Below, piece by piece: positions 5,063-10,579 of a stretch of 64,000 bases of DNA. The stretch spans positions 2,233 to 66,232 of the forward strand of contig DATFUB010000016.1 of assembly GCA_035261225.1 (NCBI GenBank), read 5' to 3'. The notes beneath the pieces are model-generated. The model was not told the origin of the DNA. It did no database searches and saw nothing but the letters and a program-made list of their open reading frames with translations. Position numbers and translations under genes: made by a program. Each line of letters begins with the position of its first letter. Position 1 is the first letter of the stretch. The stretch comes from Sphingomicrobium sp. (GTDB lineage: Bacteria; Pseudomonadota; Alphaproteobacteria; Sphingomonadales; Sphingomonadaceae).

Positions 5063-5948
5063 GGCAATCGCGACGCTGATAGCAGCCGGACGTCTGGATG
5101 ACAGGCTGGTCGATCGCGCCCTCGGCCTGCTGCGGGAGTTCGATCCGCAGGCGAGCTTCGGGCACTGGATCGACGAGGGCGACGCGGCGGACCTGCGCTT
5201 CACCGGCGATCTCAAGAGCGCGCGCTGGGCGTTGCAGGCGCTCCCGGACGTGGATTTTGTGGTCCAGCCCGACGAGCCGCGATGGAAGCGGCTGCTCGTC
5301 GCCGACATGGATTCGACGATCATCGGCCAGGAATGCATCGACGAACTCGCCGATTATGCCGGCCTCAAGGACGAGGTCGCGCGGATCACCGAGCGCGCGA
5401 TGCAGGGCGAGATCGATTTCAGTGGCGCGCTACGGGAGCGGGTCAGGCTGCTTGCCGGGCTCGACCAGAGCGAGCTTGCGCGGTGCCTTACGGAGCGCGT
5501 GAAGATTACCTCCGGCGCCGAGACGCTGATCCAGACGATGCGTGCCGGCGGCACTAGCTGCCTGCTGGTTTCGGGCGGTTTCCTGTCCTTCGCGGAGCCG
5601 ATCGCGCGGACGGTCGGGTTCGACCGGGTCAGGGCCAATCGTCTGATATTCGCCGGCGGTAAACTGAGCGGCGAAGTTGGCGACCCGATCGTCGATGCGA
5701 TGAGCAAGTATGAGGCGCTGATCGAGGCGCGCGAGCAGCTTGGCCTGTCCCGTGAAGACGTGCTGGCCGTCGGCGATGGGGCGAATGACAGGCTGATGAT
5801 CGAGGAAGCCGGGCTCGGGATCGCTTACAAGGCCAAGCCGGCCCTGGCCGAGGTCGCGGACGCCGAATTGAAGCACCATGGGCTCGACGCTTTGCTATGG
5901 GTCCAGGGCGTGCGGCGGCGCGACTGGTTCCGCGGCAAGGCTATTTGA
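5061..5948 (+). CDS. serB: Phosphoserine phosphatase
   Basis: HAD motifs ADMDSTII, VSGGF, K and GDGANDRLM, plus ECIDELAD. Start MAIATLIAAG at 5061. Confidence 0.95.
   Translation: MAIATLIAAGRLDDRLVDRALGLLREFDPQASFGHWIDEGDAADLRFTGDLKSARWALQALPDVDFVVQPDEPRWKRLLVADMDSTIIGQECIDELADYAGLKDEVARITERAMQGEIDFSGALRERVRLLAGLDQSELARCLTERVKITSGAETLIQTMRAGGTSCLLVSGGFLSFAEPIARTVGFDRVRANRLIFAGGKLSGEVGDPIVDAMSKYEALIEAREQLGLSREDVLAVGDGANDRLMIEEAGLGIAYKAKPALAEVADAELKHHGLDALLWVQGVRRRDWFRGKAI
5076..5104 (-). promoter_or_regulatory. Possible sigma70 promoter for miaA inside the serB coding sequence
   Basis: The minus strand reads CTGTCA-N17-TATCAG, ending 13 nt before the miaA ATG. Confidence 0.35.
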
Positions 5949-6870
5949 CTGCGAAGCAGGCCTGGCCCTTCAGCGCACTACACGCGGCGCTGGCTGAGGC
6001 ACGGGATTCAAATGGACCGACCTGAAGCCGGGTAATCGCGCCGACCGGAATGTAATAGGCCTGGCGCCCAGCCAGGGCGCCATTGCCCGACAATTTACGG
6101 AACAAGGCCTCGGCCGACGATCGCTGCGAGAAGGCGCCGAGCTGGATGCGCCAGGCGCCGGATGCCGCCACGGCCGGCTTGGTCGGTTGAGGCTTGGCGG
6201 CAGGTGGCGGCGTCTTTGCCACCAAGATCGGTGTTTTCGCCGCTACGGGCAGAGTTTTCGTAACCGGTTTGGCGGGTTTCGGTTCGGTCTTCGTGGCTGG
6301 AGCGGGAGCGGTTTTTGCCTTGGCAATCGCTAGCGCGACACCTTTCTTGCGTTCGGCGAGCGGGAGGATCTGATCGAGCTGGGCGAGGGTGTCCTTGGCC
6401 GCCGGAAGCCCCTGGGCCGCGGCGCGGCTGACATAGGCGTAGCCCAGGACCGGGTCCTGGGGTGCACCGTCACCGTTGAACAATGCGGTGCCGTAAACCA
6501 GCATGGCCCGCGGCTCGCCTTTTTCCGACGCGGCCTTGAGCCAGCGCAATCCGGCGATGCGATTGCCGTTCTGGAACAGCAGCAGGCCGAGGGTGGTCTC
6601 GGCGTCGAGGTGGCCCTTTGCGGCCGCCCGTTCGAACGAGGTTTGCGCAGCGGCAAGATCGAGCGGGACGCCCCGCCCGAGCCGGTAGGCCTGGCCGAGA
6701 TTGAACGCAGCGTCGGCGTCGCCGCTCTCGGCGAGGGGCCGCCAAATTGTCACGGCGGCGGCATAATCGGACCGCTGCCACGCTTCGATGCCCGCCTTTA
6801 CTGACTGGGCGGAAACCGGCGCAGCGACCGAAGCGATCGCCATCCACACAGCTAAATACTTGTAACGCAT
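5941..6870 (-). CDS. Secreted Sel1-repeat protein with C-terminal SPOR domain
   Basis: Signal peptide, Sel1 repeats (AAFNLGQAYRLGRGVP, AETTLGLLLFQ, AMLVYGTALFNGDG), a Pro/Lys/Ala linker and a SPOR domain starting WRIQLGAFS. Confidence 0.9.
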   Translation of the reverse strand: MRYKYLAVWMAIASVAAPVSAQSVKAGIEAWQRSDYAAAVTIWRPLAESGDADAAFNLGQAYRLGRGVPLDLAAAQTSFERAAAKGHLDAETTLGLLLFQNGNRIAGLRWLKAASEKGEPRAMLVYGTALFNGDGAPQDPVLGYAYVSRAAAQGLPAAKDTLAQLDQILPLAERKKGVALAIAKAKTAPAPATKTEPKPAKPVTKTLPVAAKTPILVAKTPPPAAKPQPTKPAVAASGAWRIQLGAFSQRSSAEALFRKLSGNGALAGRQAYYIPVGAITRLQVGPFESRASASAACSALKGQACFAVK

Positions 6871-6936
6871 GCTTTATCGCACCTCCACCCAAGTGTAGCC
6901 GAGTTGGTCCAATCGGCAAATACAGTCGTATTGATG

Positions 6937-6951
6937 TTAACCAGATTTTAG
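6937..6951. promoter_or_regulatory. Near-consensus CtrA box between the divergent Sel1-SPOR and parA-like genes
   Basis: TTAA-CCAGATT-TTAG, one mismatch to TTAA-N7-TTAA. Confidence 0.6.
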
Positions 6952-7006
6952 AGCCTTGGGTGTCACTTCGGCCAGTGAACTGACGTCACAGGGCGAGGGG
7001 AAAAGC

Positions 7007-7726
7007 ATGCGCGTTCTGGCAATGGCATCGCAGAAGGGCGGGTCGGGTAAGACGACTCTGTCCGGGCATCTTGCGGTGCAGGCGCAGCTGGCGGGCGCTG
7101 GGCCCGTCTGCCTGATCGACATCGATCCGCAGGGTAGCCTGGCCGATTGGTGGAACGAGCGCGAAGCCGAGATGCCGGCCTTTGCTCAAACCACGGTCGC
7201 GCGCCTGGCGTCCGACCTCGAAGTGCTTCGCCAGCAGGGCTTTCGCCTTGCGGTCGTCGATACGCCGCCGGCCATTACCATGGCGATCCAGAGCGTGATC
7301 GCGGTCGCCGAGCTGATCGTCATTCCCACCCGTCCGAGCCCACACGACCTACGCGCCGTCGGCGCCACGGTCGATTTGTGCGACCGCGCCGGCAAGCCGC
7401 TCATTTTCGTCGTCAACGCTGCGACGCCCAAAGCGAAGATTACCTATGAAGCCGCCGTCGCGCTGTCGCAGCACGGCACCGTCGCTCCGGTCACGGTCCA
7501 TCACCGCACCGATTTCGCTGCCTCGATGATCGACGGGCGCACGGTGATGGAGATCGACCCGAACGGGCGCTCCGCCAACGAGATCGTCGAGCTGTGGGAG
7601 TATATCTCCGACCGGCTCGAGAAAAACTTCCGCCGAACTGTGTTTGCTGCGCCGGGTGCGGCGCAAGCCAGTTCAGCTAGTCCGCGTCCAGTCGGCGGCT
7701 TCGGCCGTCGGGTGGTTGGCCAGTAA
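7007..7726 (+). CDS. ParA/MinD-family ATPase (short, ParF-like, no N-terminal HTH)
   Basis: Deviant Walker A KGGSGKT, IDIDPQGS (switch I) and VDTPP (Walker B). Start MRVLAM at 7007 after GAGGGG. Confidence 0.93.
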   Translation: MRVLAMASQKGGSGKTTLSGHLAVQAQLAGAGPVCLIDIDPQGSLADWWNEREAEMPAFAQTTVARLASDLEVLRQQGFRLAVVDTPPAITMAIQSVIAVAELIVIPTRPSPHDLRAVGATVDLCDRAGKPLIFVVNAATPKAKITYEAAVALSQHGTVAPVTVHHRTDFAASMIDGRTVMEIDPNGRSANEIVELWEYISDRLEKNFRRTVFAAPGAAQASSASPRPVGGFGRRVVGQ

Positions 7727-7738
7727 GGGGGCGCACAA

Positions 7739-8389
7739 GTGAACAGCGAACCCAAGCCTTTCGCCTCTCTCTCTTCGGGATTGCTCGCTCGCAAGGGCGC
7801 GGCCCGTCCCGCCATGCGTCCCCAGGGCTTCGGCCAGGGTGCGGCCGGTCTCGAGGACCTCGGCTGGAACGACATGGGCTTTGAACCGCCCAAGCCGGCA
7901 GTCGTGCCGATCCGCGACGCCGACCATGACGCGTTCGGCGAGGAAGTCGATGATCATCCGAAGGTCCATCCGACGGGCCTGACGCCGGTTCATTCGCCGG
8001 TTCACACACAGCATGCCGAGCTTGCCGGCCGGCTTGGCGTCGACGAGCCCGAGGAATTCGACGAAATCGTCGACGAGACCGCCGAGCCGATCGAACACGA
8101 GCCAGCGCCGCTCGAAATTGAGCCGGCGCCGATTGAAATCGAGCCGACGCCGGTTGCGATCCTGCCAACGGTTCCGCGGCGGACGCCTGCGCCGCGCGCG
8201 GCTCCGGGTAGCAAGAGCAAGGCGGCGTTCACGCTGCGGCTCGACCCGGATCGTCACCTCAAGCTTCGCCTCGCCTGCGCGGTCAACGCCCGCTCGGCGC
8301 AGCAGCTGGTGACCGACGCGCTCGATCATCTGCTCGGCGACATGCCTGAACTCGAAGCCATGGCCGAGAAGGCCAAACGCAAGGGATAA
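7739..8389 (+). CDS. Putative ParA partner: basic N-terminal peptide, acidic Pro-rich linker, C-terminal ribbon-helix-helix-like domain
   Basis: N-terminal LLARKGAARPAMR and C-terminal KAAFTLRLDPDRHLKLRLACAVNARSAQQLVTDALDHLL (beta-alpha-alpha pattern). GTG start 12 nt after the parA stop. Confidence 0.75.
   Translation: MNSEPKPFASLSSGLLARKGAARPAMRPQGFGQGAAGLEDLGWNDMGFEPPKPAVVPIRDADHDAFGEEVDDHPKVHPTGLTPVHSPVHTQHAELAGRLGVDEPEEFDEIVDETAEPIEHEPAPLEIEPAPIEIEPTPVAILPTVPRRTPAPRAAPGSKSKAAFTLRLDPDRHLKLRLACAVNARSAQQLVTDALDHLLGDMPELEAMAEKAKRKG
8099..8161 (+). repeat. Imperfect 21-bp tandem repeat, three copies (EPAPLEI/EPAPIEI/EPTPVAI)
   Basis: gagccagcgccgctcgaaatt / gagccggcgccgattgaaatc / gagccgacgccggttgcgatc. 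Confidence 0.85.
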
Positions 8390-8393
8390 TCCG

Positions 8394-9695
8394 ATGACCA
8401 AGTCATTCCGCTTCGGCTCTGCAATCTCTCTCGTCGCGGTAGCGTCGATGATTGCGGGCTGCGCCGCTCCGCAACGCCATGCGAGCAGCGCTTCGAGCCT
8501 CGGCGGTAAGGCTGATGGGGAAGTCGGACTTGCGACCCGCGCGCTTGCAGCGTTGGCCGCAAATGATCCGACAACCGCGATCGATTATGCCGAGCGCGCG
8601 GTCGACAGGACTCCCAACGATGTCACGTTGCGAGCGTTGCTTGGCAACGCCTATTTCGTCGGCGGCCGTTTCGCCTCGGCCGAGGCCGCGTTCAAGGATG
8701 CGCTGTTGATCAACGCGAACCAGCCGCAGGTCATTCTGAAGCTCGCGCTGGTTGAAATCGCTCAGGGCAGGAACGCCGAAGCCCTTCAATTGCTCGACGC
8801 CAGCAGGGGCGTGCTCGATGCGGCCGATTACGGCCTCGCCCTGGCGCTCGCCGGGCGGGCGTCCGATGCGGTTGCGACGCTGGAAGTGGTCGCACGGGCC
8901 AATGGCGCCGACTCACGGGTTCGCCAAAATCTCGCGCTGGCCTATGCATTTTCCGGGGATTGGACGAGTGCCCGCACCGTTGCCGCACAGGACGTTCCCG
9001 CCGACCAGCTCGACAACCGCATTCACCAGTGGATGCAGCTGGCCAAGCCGGCGCACCCGTCGGACCAGGTCGCGGCGCTGATCGGAGTAACTCCGGCCGC
9101 CGCCGATCCGGGTCAGCCGACCCGGCTCGCGCTACGCCAGGACGGCACCCGTCAGGCCGAGGCCGTTCCAGCCCAGCAGCCGCAGGTCGCCGAGGCAACT
9201 CCGCCGCAAGCTCCGGCAGCGCCAGCTCCGATCGCGGACTTTGCACCACCTCCGCCGCCAGTGATGGCTCAAGCGGCTCCGCGAGCGCCGGCCCCGGCTG
9301 TCTTTGACGCCGGTTTTGTGGAACCGCCACCGGCACGCAAGGCAGTTGTGGCTCGCCGCGCTCCGGCGCCGATCGTGCACGCTGCGTTTCGCAACGTTCC
9401 CGTGCGCCGCGCCGGCAATTCGTCGGCGGTCGTCCAGCTTGGCGCGTTCGGCTCTGCCGAGCGGGTCGCTGCCGCCTGGAATGTCGCGGCTCACCGGTTC
9501 GGCTCGCTCAAGGGCTACACCCCGGTCAGCGCCCGCTTCACCAGCCCCAAGGGCACCGTCTACCGGTTGTCGGTCAAGGGCTTCAGCAGCGATCGCGAGG
9601 CTCGTCTGGTTTGCGGGGCAGTGCGCAACGCCGGTGGTACCTGCTTCGTCCGCGACGTCGCGGGCGACCGGCCGGTCCAGCTCGCTTCGCGCTAA
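8394..9695 (+). CDS. TPR-repeat lipoprotein with C-terminal SPOR domain
   Basis: Lipobox IAGC, TPRs (ALLGNAYFVGGRFASAEAAFKDAL, RQNLALAYAFSG), a Pro/Ala linker and a SPOR domain starting VVQLGAFGS. Confidence 0.9.
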   Translation: MTKSFRFGSAISLVAVASMIAGCAAPQRHASSASSLGGKADGEVGLATRALAALAANDPTTAIDYAERAVDRTPNDVTLRALLGNAYFVGGRFASAEAAFKDALLINANQPQVILKLALVEIAQGRNAEALQLLDASRGVLDAADYGLALALAGRASDAVATLEVVARANGADSRVRQNLALAYAFSGDWTSARTVAAQDVPADQLDNRIHQWMQLAKPAHPSDQVAALIGVTPAAADPGQPTRLALRQDGTRQAEAVPAQQPQVAEATPPQAPAAPAPIADFAPPPPPVMAQAAPRAPAPAVFDAGFVEPPPARKAVVARRAPAPIVHAAFRNVPVRRAGNSSAVVQLGAFGSAERVAAAWNVAAHRFGSLKGYTPVSARFTSPKGTVYRLSVKGFSSDREARLVCGAVRNAGGTCFVRDVAGDRPVQLASR

Positions 9696-10579
9696 GCCGG
9701 ACTGCCCACCAGCATCTCCAGGCAGGCCATTCGCACGGCCACGCCCATTTCAACCTGAAGCGTGATTAGCGAGCGCTGTGGATCGTCGGCGAGCGCGCTG
9801 TCGATTTCGACGCCGCGGTTCATCGGCCCCGGGTGCATCACGACGGCATCCGGCGATGCCTGGGCAAGGCGCTCTTCGGTCAGTCCGTAGCGTTCGAGAT
9901 ATTCGCCGGGCACGTCGCAATCATCCTCCAGCCGTTCGCGTTGGACGCGGAGCATCATCACCACATCAGTGCCCTCGATCGCTTCATCGATCGAAAGCGG
10001 CGGCGTTCCGTCGGGCATCAGCCTCGGCGGGCCGGCGAGGCTGACTTCGGCTCCCAGCCGCGGCAGCAACTTCGCATTGGACCGGGCGACGCGGCTGTGA
10101 CGAATGTCGCCGCAAATCGCGATCTTGAGCCCTTCGATCCGGCCGAAATGGCGGCGGATCGTCGCCGCGTCGAGCAAGGCCTGGGTCGGATGCTCGTTGG
10201 TGCCGTCTCCGGCGTTGATCACCGGGCAGTCCATGATCAGCGCCACGGCCGCCGGAGCGCCGTTCTCGCGATGACGGACGACAAGGCAATCGGGCCGCAT
10301 CGCGTTGAGTGTCCGTGCCGTATCCTCGAACGTCTCGCCCTTCTTGATCGACGATTGCTCGACCGGCAGGAAGACGGGCGCTGCCCCCAGCCTGTGCGCC
10401 GCGGCCGCGAAGGACATCGCCGTGCGGGTCGAATTTTCGTAAAACAGGTTGAACACCAGCTTCCCGGTCAACCGGTCGCTTGGACGCCCTGCGCGATTTT
10501 CGCCAAACCAATGATCCGCGCGATCGAGGATCGTCGCGATCTGGTCGTCGCCTAGCGAATCGATGGAAAGCAGGTCCAC
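9692..10579 (-). CDS. pyrB: Aspartate carbamoyltransferase catalytic subunit
   Basis: FYENSTRT, HPTQALLD, GDIRHSRVARSN, RVQRER and HPGPMNRGVEI motifs. Confidence 0.97.
   Translation of the reverse strand: MDLLSIDSLGDDQIATILDRADHWFGENRAGRPSDRLTGKLVFNLFYENSTRTAMSFAAAAHRLGAAPVFLPVEQSSIKKGETFEDTARTLNAMRPDCLVVRHRENGAPAAVALIMDCPVINAGDGTNEHPTQALLDAATIRRHFGRIEGLKIAICGDIRHSRVARSNAKLLPRLGAEVSLAGPPRLMPDGTPPLSIDEAIEGTDVVMMLRVQRERLEDDCDVPGEYLERYGLTEERLAQASPDAVVMHPGPMNRGVEIDSALADDPQRSLITLQVEMGVAVRMACLEMLVGSPA

Follow-up and report, generated by a model that had tools for sequence, protein, structure and literature searches.

A chromosomal ParF/ParG-like gene pair embedded between two SPOR genes in Sphingomonadaceae and its possible relation to late cell division

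The locus and its genes

The window analysed here is a stretch of 64,000 nucleotides (nt) of Sphingomicrobium sp. (contig DATFUB010000016.1), and all coordinates are positions in this window. Its region 5941-9695 comprises four genes: a ParF-like ATPase of the ParA family, a partner protein with a predicted ribbon-helix-helix (RHH) domain, and, on either side of this pair, an exported protein with a C-terminal SPOR domain. The partner starts 12 nt behind the ParA stop codon and the TPR-SPOR lipoprotein gene 4 nt behind the partner stop codon, so that the three genes form one apparent operon. The Sel1-SPOR gene is divergent from this operon, and the shared intergenic region contains a box of the type bound by CtrA. 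The features are listed below (aa, amino acids; HTH, helix-turn-helix; pLDDT, predicted local distance difference test score). The Pfam cut-offs used were 21 bits for SPOR, 30.7 bits for Sel1 and 27 bits for RHH_10.

5941..6870, minus strand: Sel1-SPOR gene (Pfam SPOR 61.3 bits, Sel1 42.3 bits)
6937..6951, no strand assigned: CtrA-type box TTAACCAGATTTTAG, GTTAA-N7-TTAG, with 1 mismatch to TTAA-N7-TTAA
7007..7726, plus strand: ParF-like (type Ib) ParA of 239 aa, with deviant Walker A motif KGGSGKT and without HTH
7625..7723, plus strand: C-terminal extension of ParA, aa 207-239, with tail motif GGFGRRVVGQ
7739..8389, plus strand: partner of 216 aa, GTG start, homologous to plasmid partners at both termini
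7760..7828, plus strand: N-terminal peptide of the partner, FASLSSGLLARKGAARPAMRPQG, aa 8-30, a putative activating tail by analogy
7856-7879, plus strand: partner motif DLGWNDMG, aa 40-47, invariant in the family alignment
~7997-8035, plus strand: predicted short helix of the partner, aa 87-99, pLDDT 70-82
~8099-8161, plus strand: Pro/Glu-rich short repeat of the partner, EPAPLEIEPAPIEIEPTP, behind the two linker motifs
8216..8338, plus strand: putative DNA-binding domain at aa 160-200 of the partner, similar to a ribbon-helix-helix (RHH_10 sub-threshold, helices in the structure model)
8394..9695, plus strand: TPR-SPOR lipoprotein gene (lipobox IAGC; TPR_19 54.9 bits, SPOR 33.8 bits)

The first-pass annotation of this DNA had described a ParF-like ATPase with KGGSGKT and no HTH, the two short spacings and the single apparent operon. 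Every detail of these sequence features was borne out, and the only Pfam matches of the ATPase are of the ParA/MinD type. One flank of the module carries ilvC, miaA and serB, the other pyrB, ruvX and a DUF3089-like gene. These are housekeeping genes, and this core chromosomal setting is kept across genera. The stop codon of the TPR-SPOR gene overlaps that of the convergent pyrB by 4 nt (9692-9695), which leaves no space for a terminator between them.

The ParA ATPase

The start codon of ParA is the ATG at 7007 behind GAGGGG, which is conserved in all relatives (MRVLA...); the list of open reading frames gave TTG at 6956. ParA is a small protein without N-terminal HTH, and its P-loop SQKGGSGKTT (aa 8-17) contains the signature lysine. 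It matches the ParF/TP228 structures 5u1g and 4dzz with E 6e-14 over aa 1-194. The match with NF041546 (ParA_partition) reaches 159.5 bits over profile positions 1-202 of 203, below the equivalog cut-off of 180; the window ParA is a full-length relative, yet one under the equivalog threshold. Identity to plasmid type Ib ParAs is 55-65% (133 plasmid records). The earlier suggestion that ParA is an orphan working with a partner other than DNA-binding ones, as in McdAB, PomXYZ and PpfA, does not agree with this identity, nor with the predicted RHH domain of the partner. Close homologs found by protein search are annotated only as "ParA family" or "chromosome partitioning" protein.

In a phylogenetic tree the window ParA forms one tight clade with its plasmid homologs, very far from Soj and MipZ of the same genome. 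This genome encodes the canonical rsmG-parA-parB on contig C36 (ParB with 189.8 bits on TIGR00180), MipZ on contig C128 (PF09140, 359 bits, full length), and also an Mrp-type P-loop protein on contig C50. Identity of the window ParA with the canonical chromosomal ParA is ruled out by the separate rsmG-parA-parB locus and the distance to Soj. MipZ is ruled out as well, as the window ParA scores only 28 bits on PF09140, over aa 20-72, compared to 359 bits for the true MipZ. The possibility that the ATPase would prove to be one of these two, raised in the first-pass annotation as a ground for dismissal, was thus checked and did not apply.

The plasmid homologs end at 207-228 aa and do not contain an FGRR motif. 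Chromosomal homologs of the Alphaproteobacteria, on the other hand, continue with a C-terminal linker of variable length, followed by FGRR.

Since ParA falls into one family with plasmid ParAs, an active partition system of a secondary replicon or an integrated element has to be considered. Of 7 plasmid ParA loci inspected, 5 have as neighbour a resolvase gene or a gene of a replication initiator (trfA, repC or another one); a small unnamed gene comes next after ParA in 5 of the 7. Among the genes neighbouring the module, in agreement with the first-pass annotation, there is no ParB, replication or mobile-element gene; integrase and transfer genes are likewise absent near the module, and no centromere-like repeats beyond chance-level pairs were found in 5800-9800. 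The housekeeping neighbours are conserved across the family, and ParA occupies the same chromosomal site as a single copy in many genera. A role in replicon partition appears extremely improbable and is essentially excluded.

The partner protein

The partner consists of an N-terminal peptide, a long, acidic, Pro-rich and disordered linker whose length varies within the family, and a C-terminal strand-helix-helix that is common to the window partner and plasmid partners. The N-terminal peptide reads FASLSSGLLARKGAARPA in the window partner and SSLSAGLIAKKGQAVPA or AALSASLVAVKGSASPA in plasmid partners. In an alignment of 34 family partners, 13 of the 23 residues of the peptide are invariant (within aa 9-29). 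Further invariant parts are DLGWNDMG at aa 40-47, a short helix at about aa 87-99, and the putative RHH at aa 161-196. In this lineage no other part of the partner is as well conserved as the latter, which includes the strand AFTLRLD, predicted to contact DNA.

A profile of the 34 partners finds RHH proteins as top matches in the PDB, namely SvtR (E 0.047) and ParG (1p94, E 0.13). By sequence, the partner matches solved structures only marginally. The AlphaFold2 model of the partner is ordered only at aa 170-214 and aa 87-99, with confident helices at aa 170-183 and aa 187-200 (pLDDT >90). Foldseek with this model displays short-domain matches at ranks 1, 3, 5, 6, 8 and 11 to DNA-binding domains of small regulators, all with E >1. 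These include CopA-SO (TM-score 0.74 on the target), AtaR, Arc and PutA, which we take to be RHH-type DNA-binding domains; none of the matches is significant.

In its layout the partner is ParG-like, with the predicted arrangement of plasmid partners (an N-terminal activating peptide and a C-terminal RHH) plus additions. Because of the kinship of ParA with plasmid ParAs, and because the N-terminal peptide and the putative C-terminal RHH are both found in plasmid partners, DNA is the most likely thing to be bound by the partner. The motif DLGWNDMG and the helix at aa 87-99 may dock other proteins. No further adaptors bearing the peptide were found elsewhere in the genome.

The flanking SPOR proteins

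Both flanking proteins combine a C-terminal SPOR domain above the Pfam threshold with an export signal that can be read directly from the sequence. The N-terminus of the Sel1-SPOR protein reads as a Sec signal peptide with cleavage after VSA (between ...PVSA and QS). The TPR-SPOR protein, encoded by the last gene of the apparent operon, is a lipoprotein with lipobox IAGC and Ala at position +2. Both are accordingly exported proteins and predicted binders of septal peptidoglycan. In a class sample of 300 genomes, clear TPR-SPOR orthologs occur only in genomes with the four-gene module.

Conservation of the module

ParA is present as a single copy in 151 of 201 high-quality Sphingomonadaceae genomes and 80 of 103 genera, with 74-94% identity. 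All four genes are found together in 87 of 94 fetched related loci, and most exceptions are cut by contig ends. The Sel1-SPOR ortholog adjoins ParA in 87 of these 94 loci, and also in other families. Within the family, TPR-SPOR was found in 19 of 20 ParA-positive and in 8 of 20 ParA-negative genomes. Despite different flanks, the four-gene order is kept in six further families of this GTDB order, and beyond the order it occurs in the two families f31 and f85 as well. Synteny across Alphaproteobacteria, a check that the first-pass annotation had proposed, therefore extends well beyond close relatives. Judged by this distribution and by the housekeeping flanks, ParA and partner are a chromosomal, single-copy and apparently vertically inherited operon.

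The CtrA-type box and other regulatory elements

The box TTAACCAGATTTTAG is located upstream of both genes, at a distance of 56 nt from the ParA ATG and of 67 nt from the Sel1-SPOR ATG. The first-pass annotation had read it as a near-consensus CtrA box between the divergent genes, and conservation agrees with this reading: TTAA-N7-TTAG is present within 170 bp upstream of ParA in 83 of 85 Sphingomonadaceae loci, compared to 0.1 in shuffled sequences. In 80 of the 83 cases it lies at -63 to -86 from the ParA start, and the bases around the box vary. In 13 loci there is a second box nearer to the Sel1-SPOR gene. CtrA itself is encoded in the genome (NF045991, 417 bits, cut-off 350). The box may thus be regarded as a predicted CtrA site, with CtrA binding and timing of expression to be understood as inferred.

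An alternative reading of the box as operator of the RHH protein or as centromere was rejected. Plasmid par relatives carry clear iterons such as GCACGAAA, which differ from the box, and the box is kept in 3 of 4 intergenic regions between Sel1-SPOR and TPR-SPOR genes of genomes that do not contain ParA and partner. Since the box persists without the pair and the plasmid iterons are different, a site for a host regulator is the better reading.

The stricter pattern TTAAC-N6-TTAG occurs at only 4 sites in the 2.5-Mb genome, all of them intergenic. The other three are C36:17431, C36:18013 and C103:14407. From inspection by eye, two of these presumably precede pilin-like genes (one of them facing a divergent PBP1a-like gene) and one a PilZ-domain gene, which also speaks against the box as operator of the RHH protein or as centromere.

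In five other alphaproteobacterial families, predicted cyclic di-GMP (c-di-GMP-I) riboswitches precede the ParA homolog, with scores of 51-77 bits on RF01051 (gathering threshold 35) and of about 66 bits on RF03167 (threshold 59). They are located directly upstream of the ParA homologs:

L159:6589-6677: c-di-GMP-I riboswitch
L167:7738-7829: c-di-GMP-I riboswitch
L169:5560-5648 and 6228-6316: c-di-GMP-I riboswitches
L170:6964-7049: c-di-GMP-I riboswitch
L171:7024-7111 and 7560-7648: c-di-GMP-I riboswitches

The ParAs preceded by riboswitches form one well-supported clade in the tree. These predicted elements indicate control of this ParA family by the lifestyle of the host.

Peptide-SPOR fusions and exchange of the adaptor

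In three other alphaproteobacterial families (f11, f140 and f151), the gene right after ParA encodes a protein that carries the N-terminal peptide of the partner, a transmembrane (TM) helix and a SPOR domain, and no RHH. From the N-terminus on, these fusions consist of the peptide known from the partner, an acidic linker of considerable length, a single TM helix, a Pro-rich stretch and the C-terminal SPOR, which scores 46-54 bits in the three cases (G041/f11, G171/f140 and G302/f151). The peptide-TM-SPOR genes directly after ParA homologs are:

L164:3027-4874, minus strand: peptide-TM-SPOR gene (P0158)
L181:7001-8794: peptide-TM-SPOR gene (P0159)
L226:2757-4538, plus strand: peptide-TM-SPOR gene
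L227:1494-3029, minus strand: peptide-TM-SPOR gene

Three f11-type fusion proteins are about 45% identical overall, and their first 33 residues are identical. Both f11-type proteins with fetched genomic context (P0158 and P0159) directly follow a ParA gene. A profile of the peptide has matches in 42 of 301 genomes of the class, and nearly all of these matches immediately follow a ParA homolog. To our knowledge, known FtsN-like proteins do not carry such a putative ParA-activating N-terminal peptide.

The occurrence of the same peptide on differing C-terminal modules suggests one activating peptide attached to different anchors, SPOR among them. The fusions provide independent support for a link between ParA and SPOR. 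The FGRR tail is present in most ParAs with RHH partners and absent from the ParAs of the three fusion lineages; given the small numbers, this is a lead rather than a finding.

In one further lineage (L171:5715-6236, minus strand) the partner keeps the N-terminal peptide, and Pfam found no domain in it. By eye, this partner presumably ends in an HTH-like segment instead of the RHH.

As the membrane SPOR adaptors of three families do not contain a DNA-binding domain, this ParA family can work with adaptors other than DNA-binding ones. This may suggest that also the window module is a ParA/MinD-type system for non-DNA cargo, in which the partner would serve as a hub that couples the ParA gradient to septal or polar wall machinery, while the RHH would be secondary (e.g. 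autoregulation). The invariant DLGWNDMG and the helix at aa 87-99, both within a disordered acidic linker, could bind protein, and the conserved C-terminal FGRR tail is absent from plasmid ParAs. However, the RHH with its strand AFTLRLD is the best conserved segment of the partner here, the most closely related systems are genuine plasmid partition cassettes, and the SPOR proteins of the window are confined to the periplasm, in a cluster that does not encode a membrane protein bridging to them. We therefore regard a system for non-DNA cargo as unlikely.

A possible mechanism

Based on this dataset, we hypothesize a domesticated ParF/ParG-type pair that acts on the nucleoid, is functionally tied to late division and is co-expressed with two septal-wall binders, the cargo being probably a chromosomal region bound by the partner. 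We give this explanation about an even chance of being correct; its activities, timing and cargo are what we infer from related systems and from the arrangement of the genes. By analogy to ParF, ParA-ATP dimers would bind the nucleoid non-specifically. The partner peptide (LLARKG...) would stimulate ATP hydrolysis by ParA, as may be expected from ParG and from the strict co-occurrence of peptide and ParA, and the C-terminal RHH dimer would anchor the partner on DNA. The two additional invariant motifs in the disordered linker could recruit other proteins.

The apparent operon runs on into the TPR-SPOR lipoprotein, presumably of the outer membrane, and the promoter region with the CtrA-type box is common to this operon and the Sel1-SPOR gene. 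This arrangement would result in joint production of the cytoplasmic and periplasmic parts, probably late in the cell cycle. The pair might then position or clear the partner-bound chromosomal region relative to the closing septum, and the SPOR proteins would act on septal peptidoglycan.

Several observations weigh against this explanation. Both SPOR proteins of the window are wholly periplasmic, without membrane span or cytoplasmic segment, so that direct contact with ParA or the partner is not possible; the cluster also does not encode a membrane protein that could form a bridge. Centromere-like repeats, as noted above, were not found in or beside the locus. The partner scores 18.8 bits on Pfam RHH_10 (E 0.002), under the cut-off of 27, and its assignment as a putative RHH protein rests on the convergence of individually sub-threshold tests. 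Most ParA-partner pairs in other Alphaproteobacteria do not have a SPOR neighbour. About 25% of the high-quality genomes of the family contain neither ParA nor partner. In four ParA-less genomes (L190, L191, L192 and L193) the Sel1-SPOR and TPR-SPOR genes are immediate divergent neighbours, and wherever their flanks can be seen the setting is again ilvC-miaA...pyrB-ruvX. One ParA-less locus (L188:6765-7574) keeps only the C-terminal half of the partner. Losses of ParA and partner have therefore occurred more than once, and the two SPOR genes form an independent unit. As the SPOR pair remains intact after some of these losses, each half can function alone, and the coupling is facultative.

These losses might be explained by adjacency without shared function, i.e. 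by a plasmid-derived par cassette that inserted downstream of the promoter of a divergent SPOR pair already in place, and that is kept either as a dispensable passenger or mainly as a source of an RHH regulator of this promoter. This explanation would agree with the finding, in several genera, of a SPOR-SPOR pair that has this box and these flanks and no ParA and partner, with the occurrence of ParA and partner alone in most other Alphaproteobacteria, and with their absence from about a quarter of the family. However, the conservation of the single-copy ParA at 74-94% identity over 80 genera is much stronger than expected for a passenger, and the four-gene order outlasts changes of the flanks across the order and beyond. 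The peptide-TM-SPOR fusions beside ParA in three further families are hard to explain without a functional relationship of ParA and SPOR. The box is kept also where the RHH protein is absent, so the RHH is not needed to define this promoter element. Given the fusions and the strength of conservation, mere adjacency is the less likely explanation, and we consider it rather improbable.

The first-pass annotation had suggested a module that links a ParA gradient to septal or polar cell wall. The fusions speak for such a tie to SPOR proteins; a direct physical link, however, is excluded by topology in the window, and the coupling is facultative.

More generally, one may think of a so far unrecognised machine for nucleoid-to-septum coupling in many Alphaproteobacteria that is built on a domesticated plasmid ParA, with the activating peptide (...LLARKG.A.P) placed either on a DNA-bound RHH adaptor or on an FtsN-like membrane protein that senses septal peptidoglycan through its SPOR domain. 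This is a tentative idea, and we hold it to be rather doubtful. If true, the place at which the septum closes would govern the ATP cycle of ParA on the nucleoid, and sphingomonads would have split both functions between the RHH adaptor and two periplasmic SPOR proteins behind one CtrA-type promoter. The FGRR tail of ParA may then supply the missing connection to the envelope.

Relation to known systems

ParA/MinD ATPases are the main bacterial devices for spatial placement, and each new cargo has opened a field. The ATPase family of the window is known; what is new is its chromosomal fixation, the coupling to SPOR and the swapping of adaptor modules. No published description of the module was found in the searchable literature, consistent with the first-pass annotation, which could not recall one.

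The closest known relatives are ParF-ParG-parH of TP228 and other type Ib loci. As in these, the window ParA is small, contains KGGSGKT, has no HTH and aligns with ParF end to end, and the next gene downstream encodes the partner, whose N-terminal peptide is flexible and whose putative C-terminal RHH aligns with ParG. In contrast to the plasmid loci, the window pair is chromosomal, single-copy and vertically inherited, has no adjacent iteron centromere, and is embedded between two SPOR genes behind a CtrA-type box. The window ParA has a C-terminal extension of about 30 aa ending in FGRR. The partner is 2-3 times longer than its plasmid counterparts and contains additional invariant motifs and an acidic linker that is disordered. 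As judged from 74-94% identity over 80 genera, chromosomes have retained this plasmid partition pair for a very long time.

McdAB, PomXYZ, PpfA-TlpT and MipZ resemble the window system as ParA-family ATPases that are additional to ParABS and have an adjacent adaptor; like them, the window system probably works on the nucleoid and is probably linked to some event of the cell cycle. However, the window ParA is by sequence a member of none of these groups, and its adaptor is a predicted DNA-binding RHH protein of plasmid ancestry. There are no carboxysome, chemotaxis or bactofilin genes near the module. The use of one activating peptide on both DNA-binding and membrane adaptors would clearly illustrate the way in which ParA systems gain new cargo.

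Both flanking proteins of the window have a C-terminal SPOR domain in common with the FtsN-type bitopic SPOR proteins (FtsN, DedD, DamX, and RgsS of Sinorhizobium (PMC7327166)). The latter differ from the SPOR proteins of the window, a soluble periplasmic Sel1 protein and a TPR lipoprotein, neither of which has a membrane span or cytoplasmic tail. The fusions of f11, f140 and f151, on the other hand, display the FtsN topology, i.e. a cytoplasmic N-terminus, one TM helix, a Pro-rich linker and SPOR, and differ by the putative ParA-activating peptide at the N-terminus. The tie of this ParA family to SPOR readers of the septal wall is thereby reached by two independent routes, operon structure and gene fusion.

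With FtsK, with nucleoid occlusion by Noc/SlmA and with FzlA-FtsK of Caulobacter (PMC10683668), the window module has in common only its proposed role, the coordination of DNA and septum closure at a late stage of the cell cycle. There is no sequence relationship, and the proposal made here concerns a gradient of a ParA ATPase, not a DNA pump or an inhibitor of FtsZ. If the coupling is functional, the module would offer a testable handle on how the closing of the septum is kept in step with late chromosome handling in Alphaproteobacteria that lack Min and Noc/SlmA.

Other neighbours of the ParA-partner pair

No DUF2336 gene is present in the cluster of the window, and no literature was found on DUF2336 beside a ParA-partner pair. 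Two DUF2336 genes are located just upstream of the pair in Sneathiella limimaris and in an unrelated metagenome-assembled genome (L178:1032-5072 and L179:5323-7739). In Sneathiella, a third gene downstream displays a weak MopJ/PAS_5-like match (E 4e-4).

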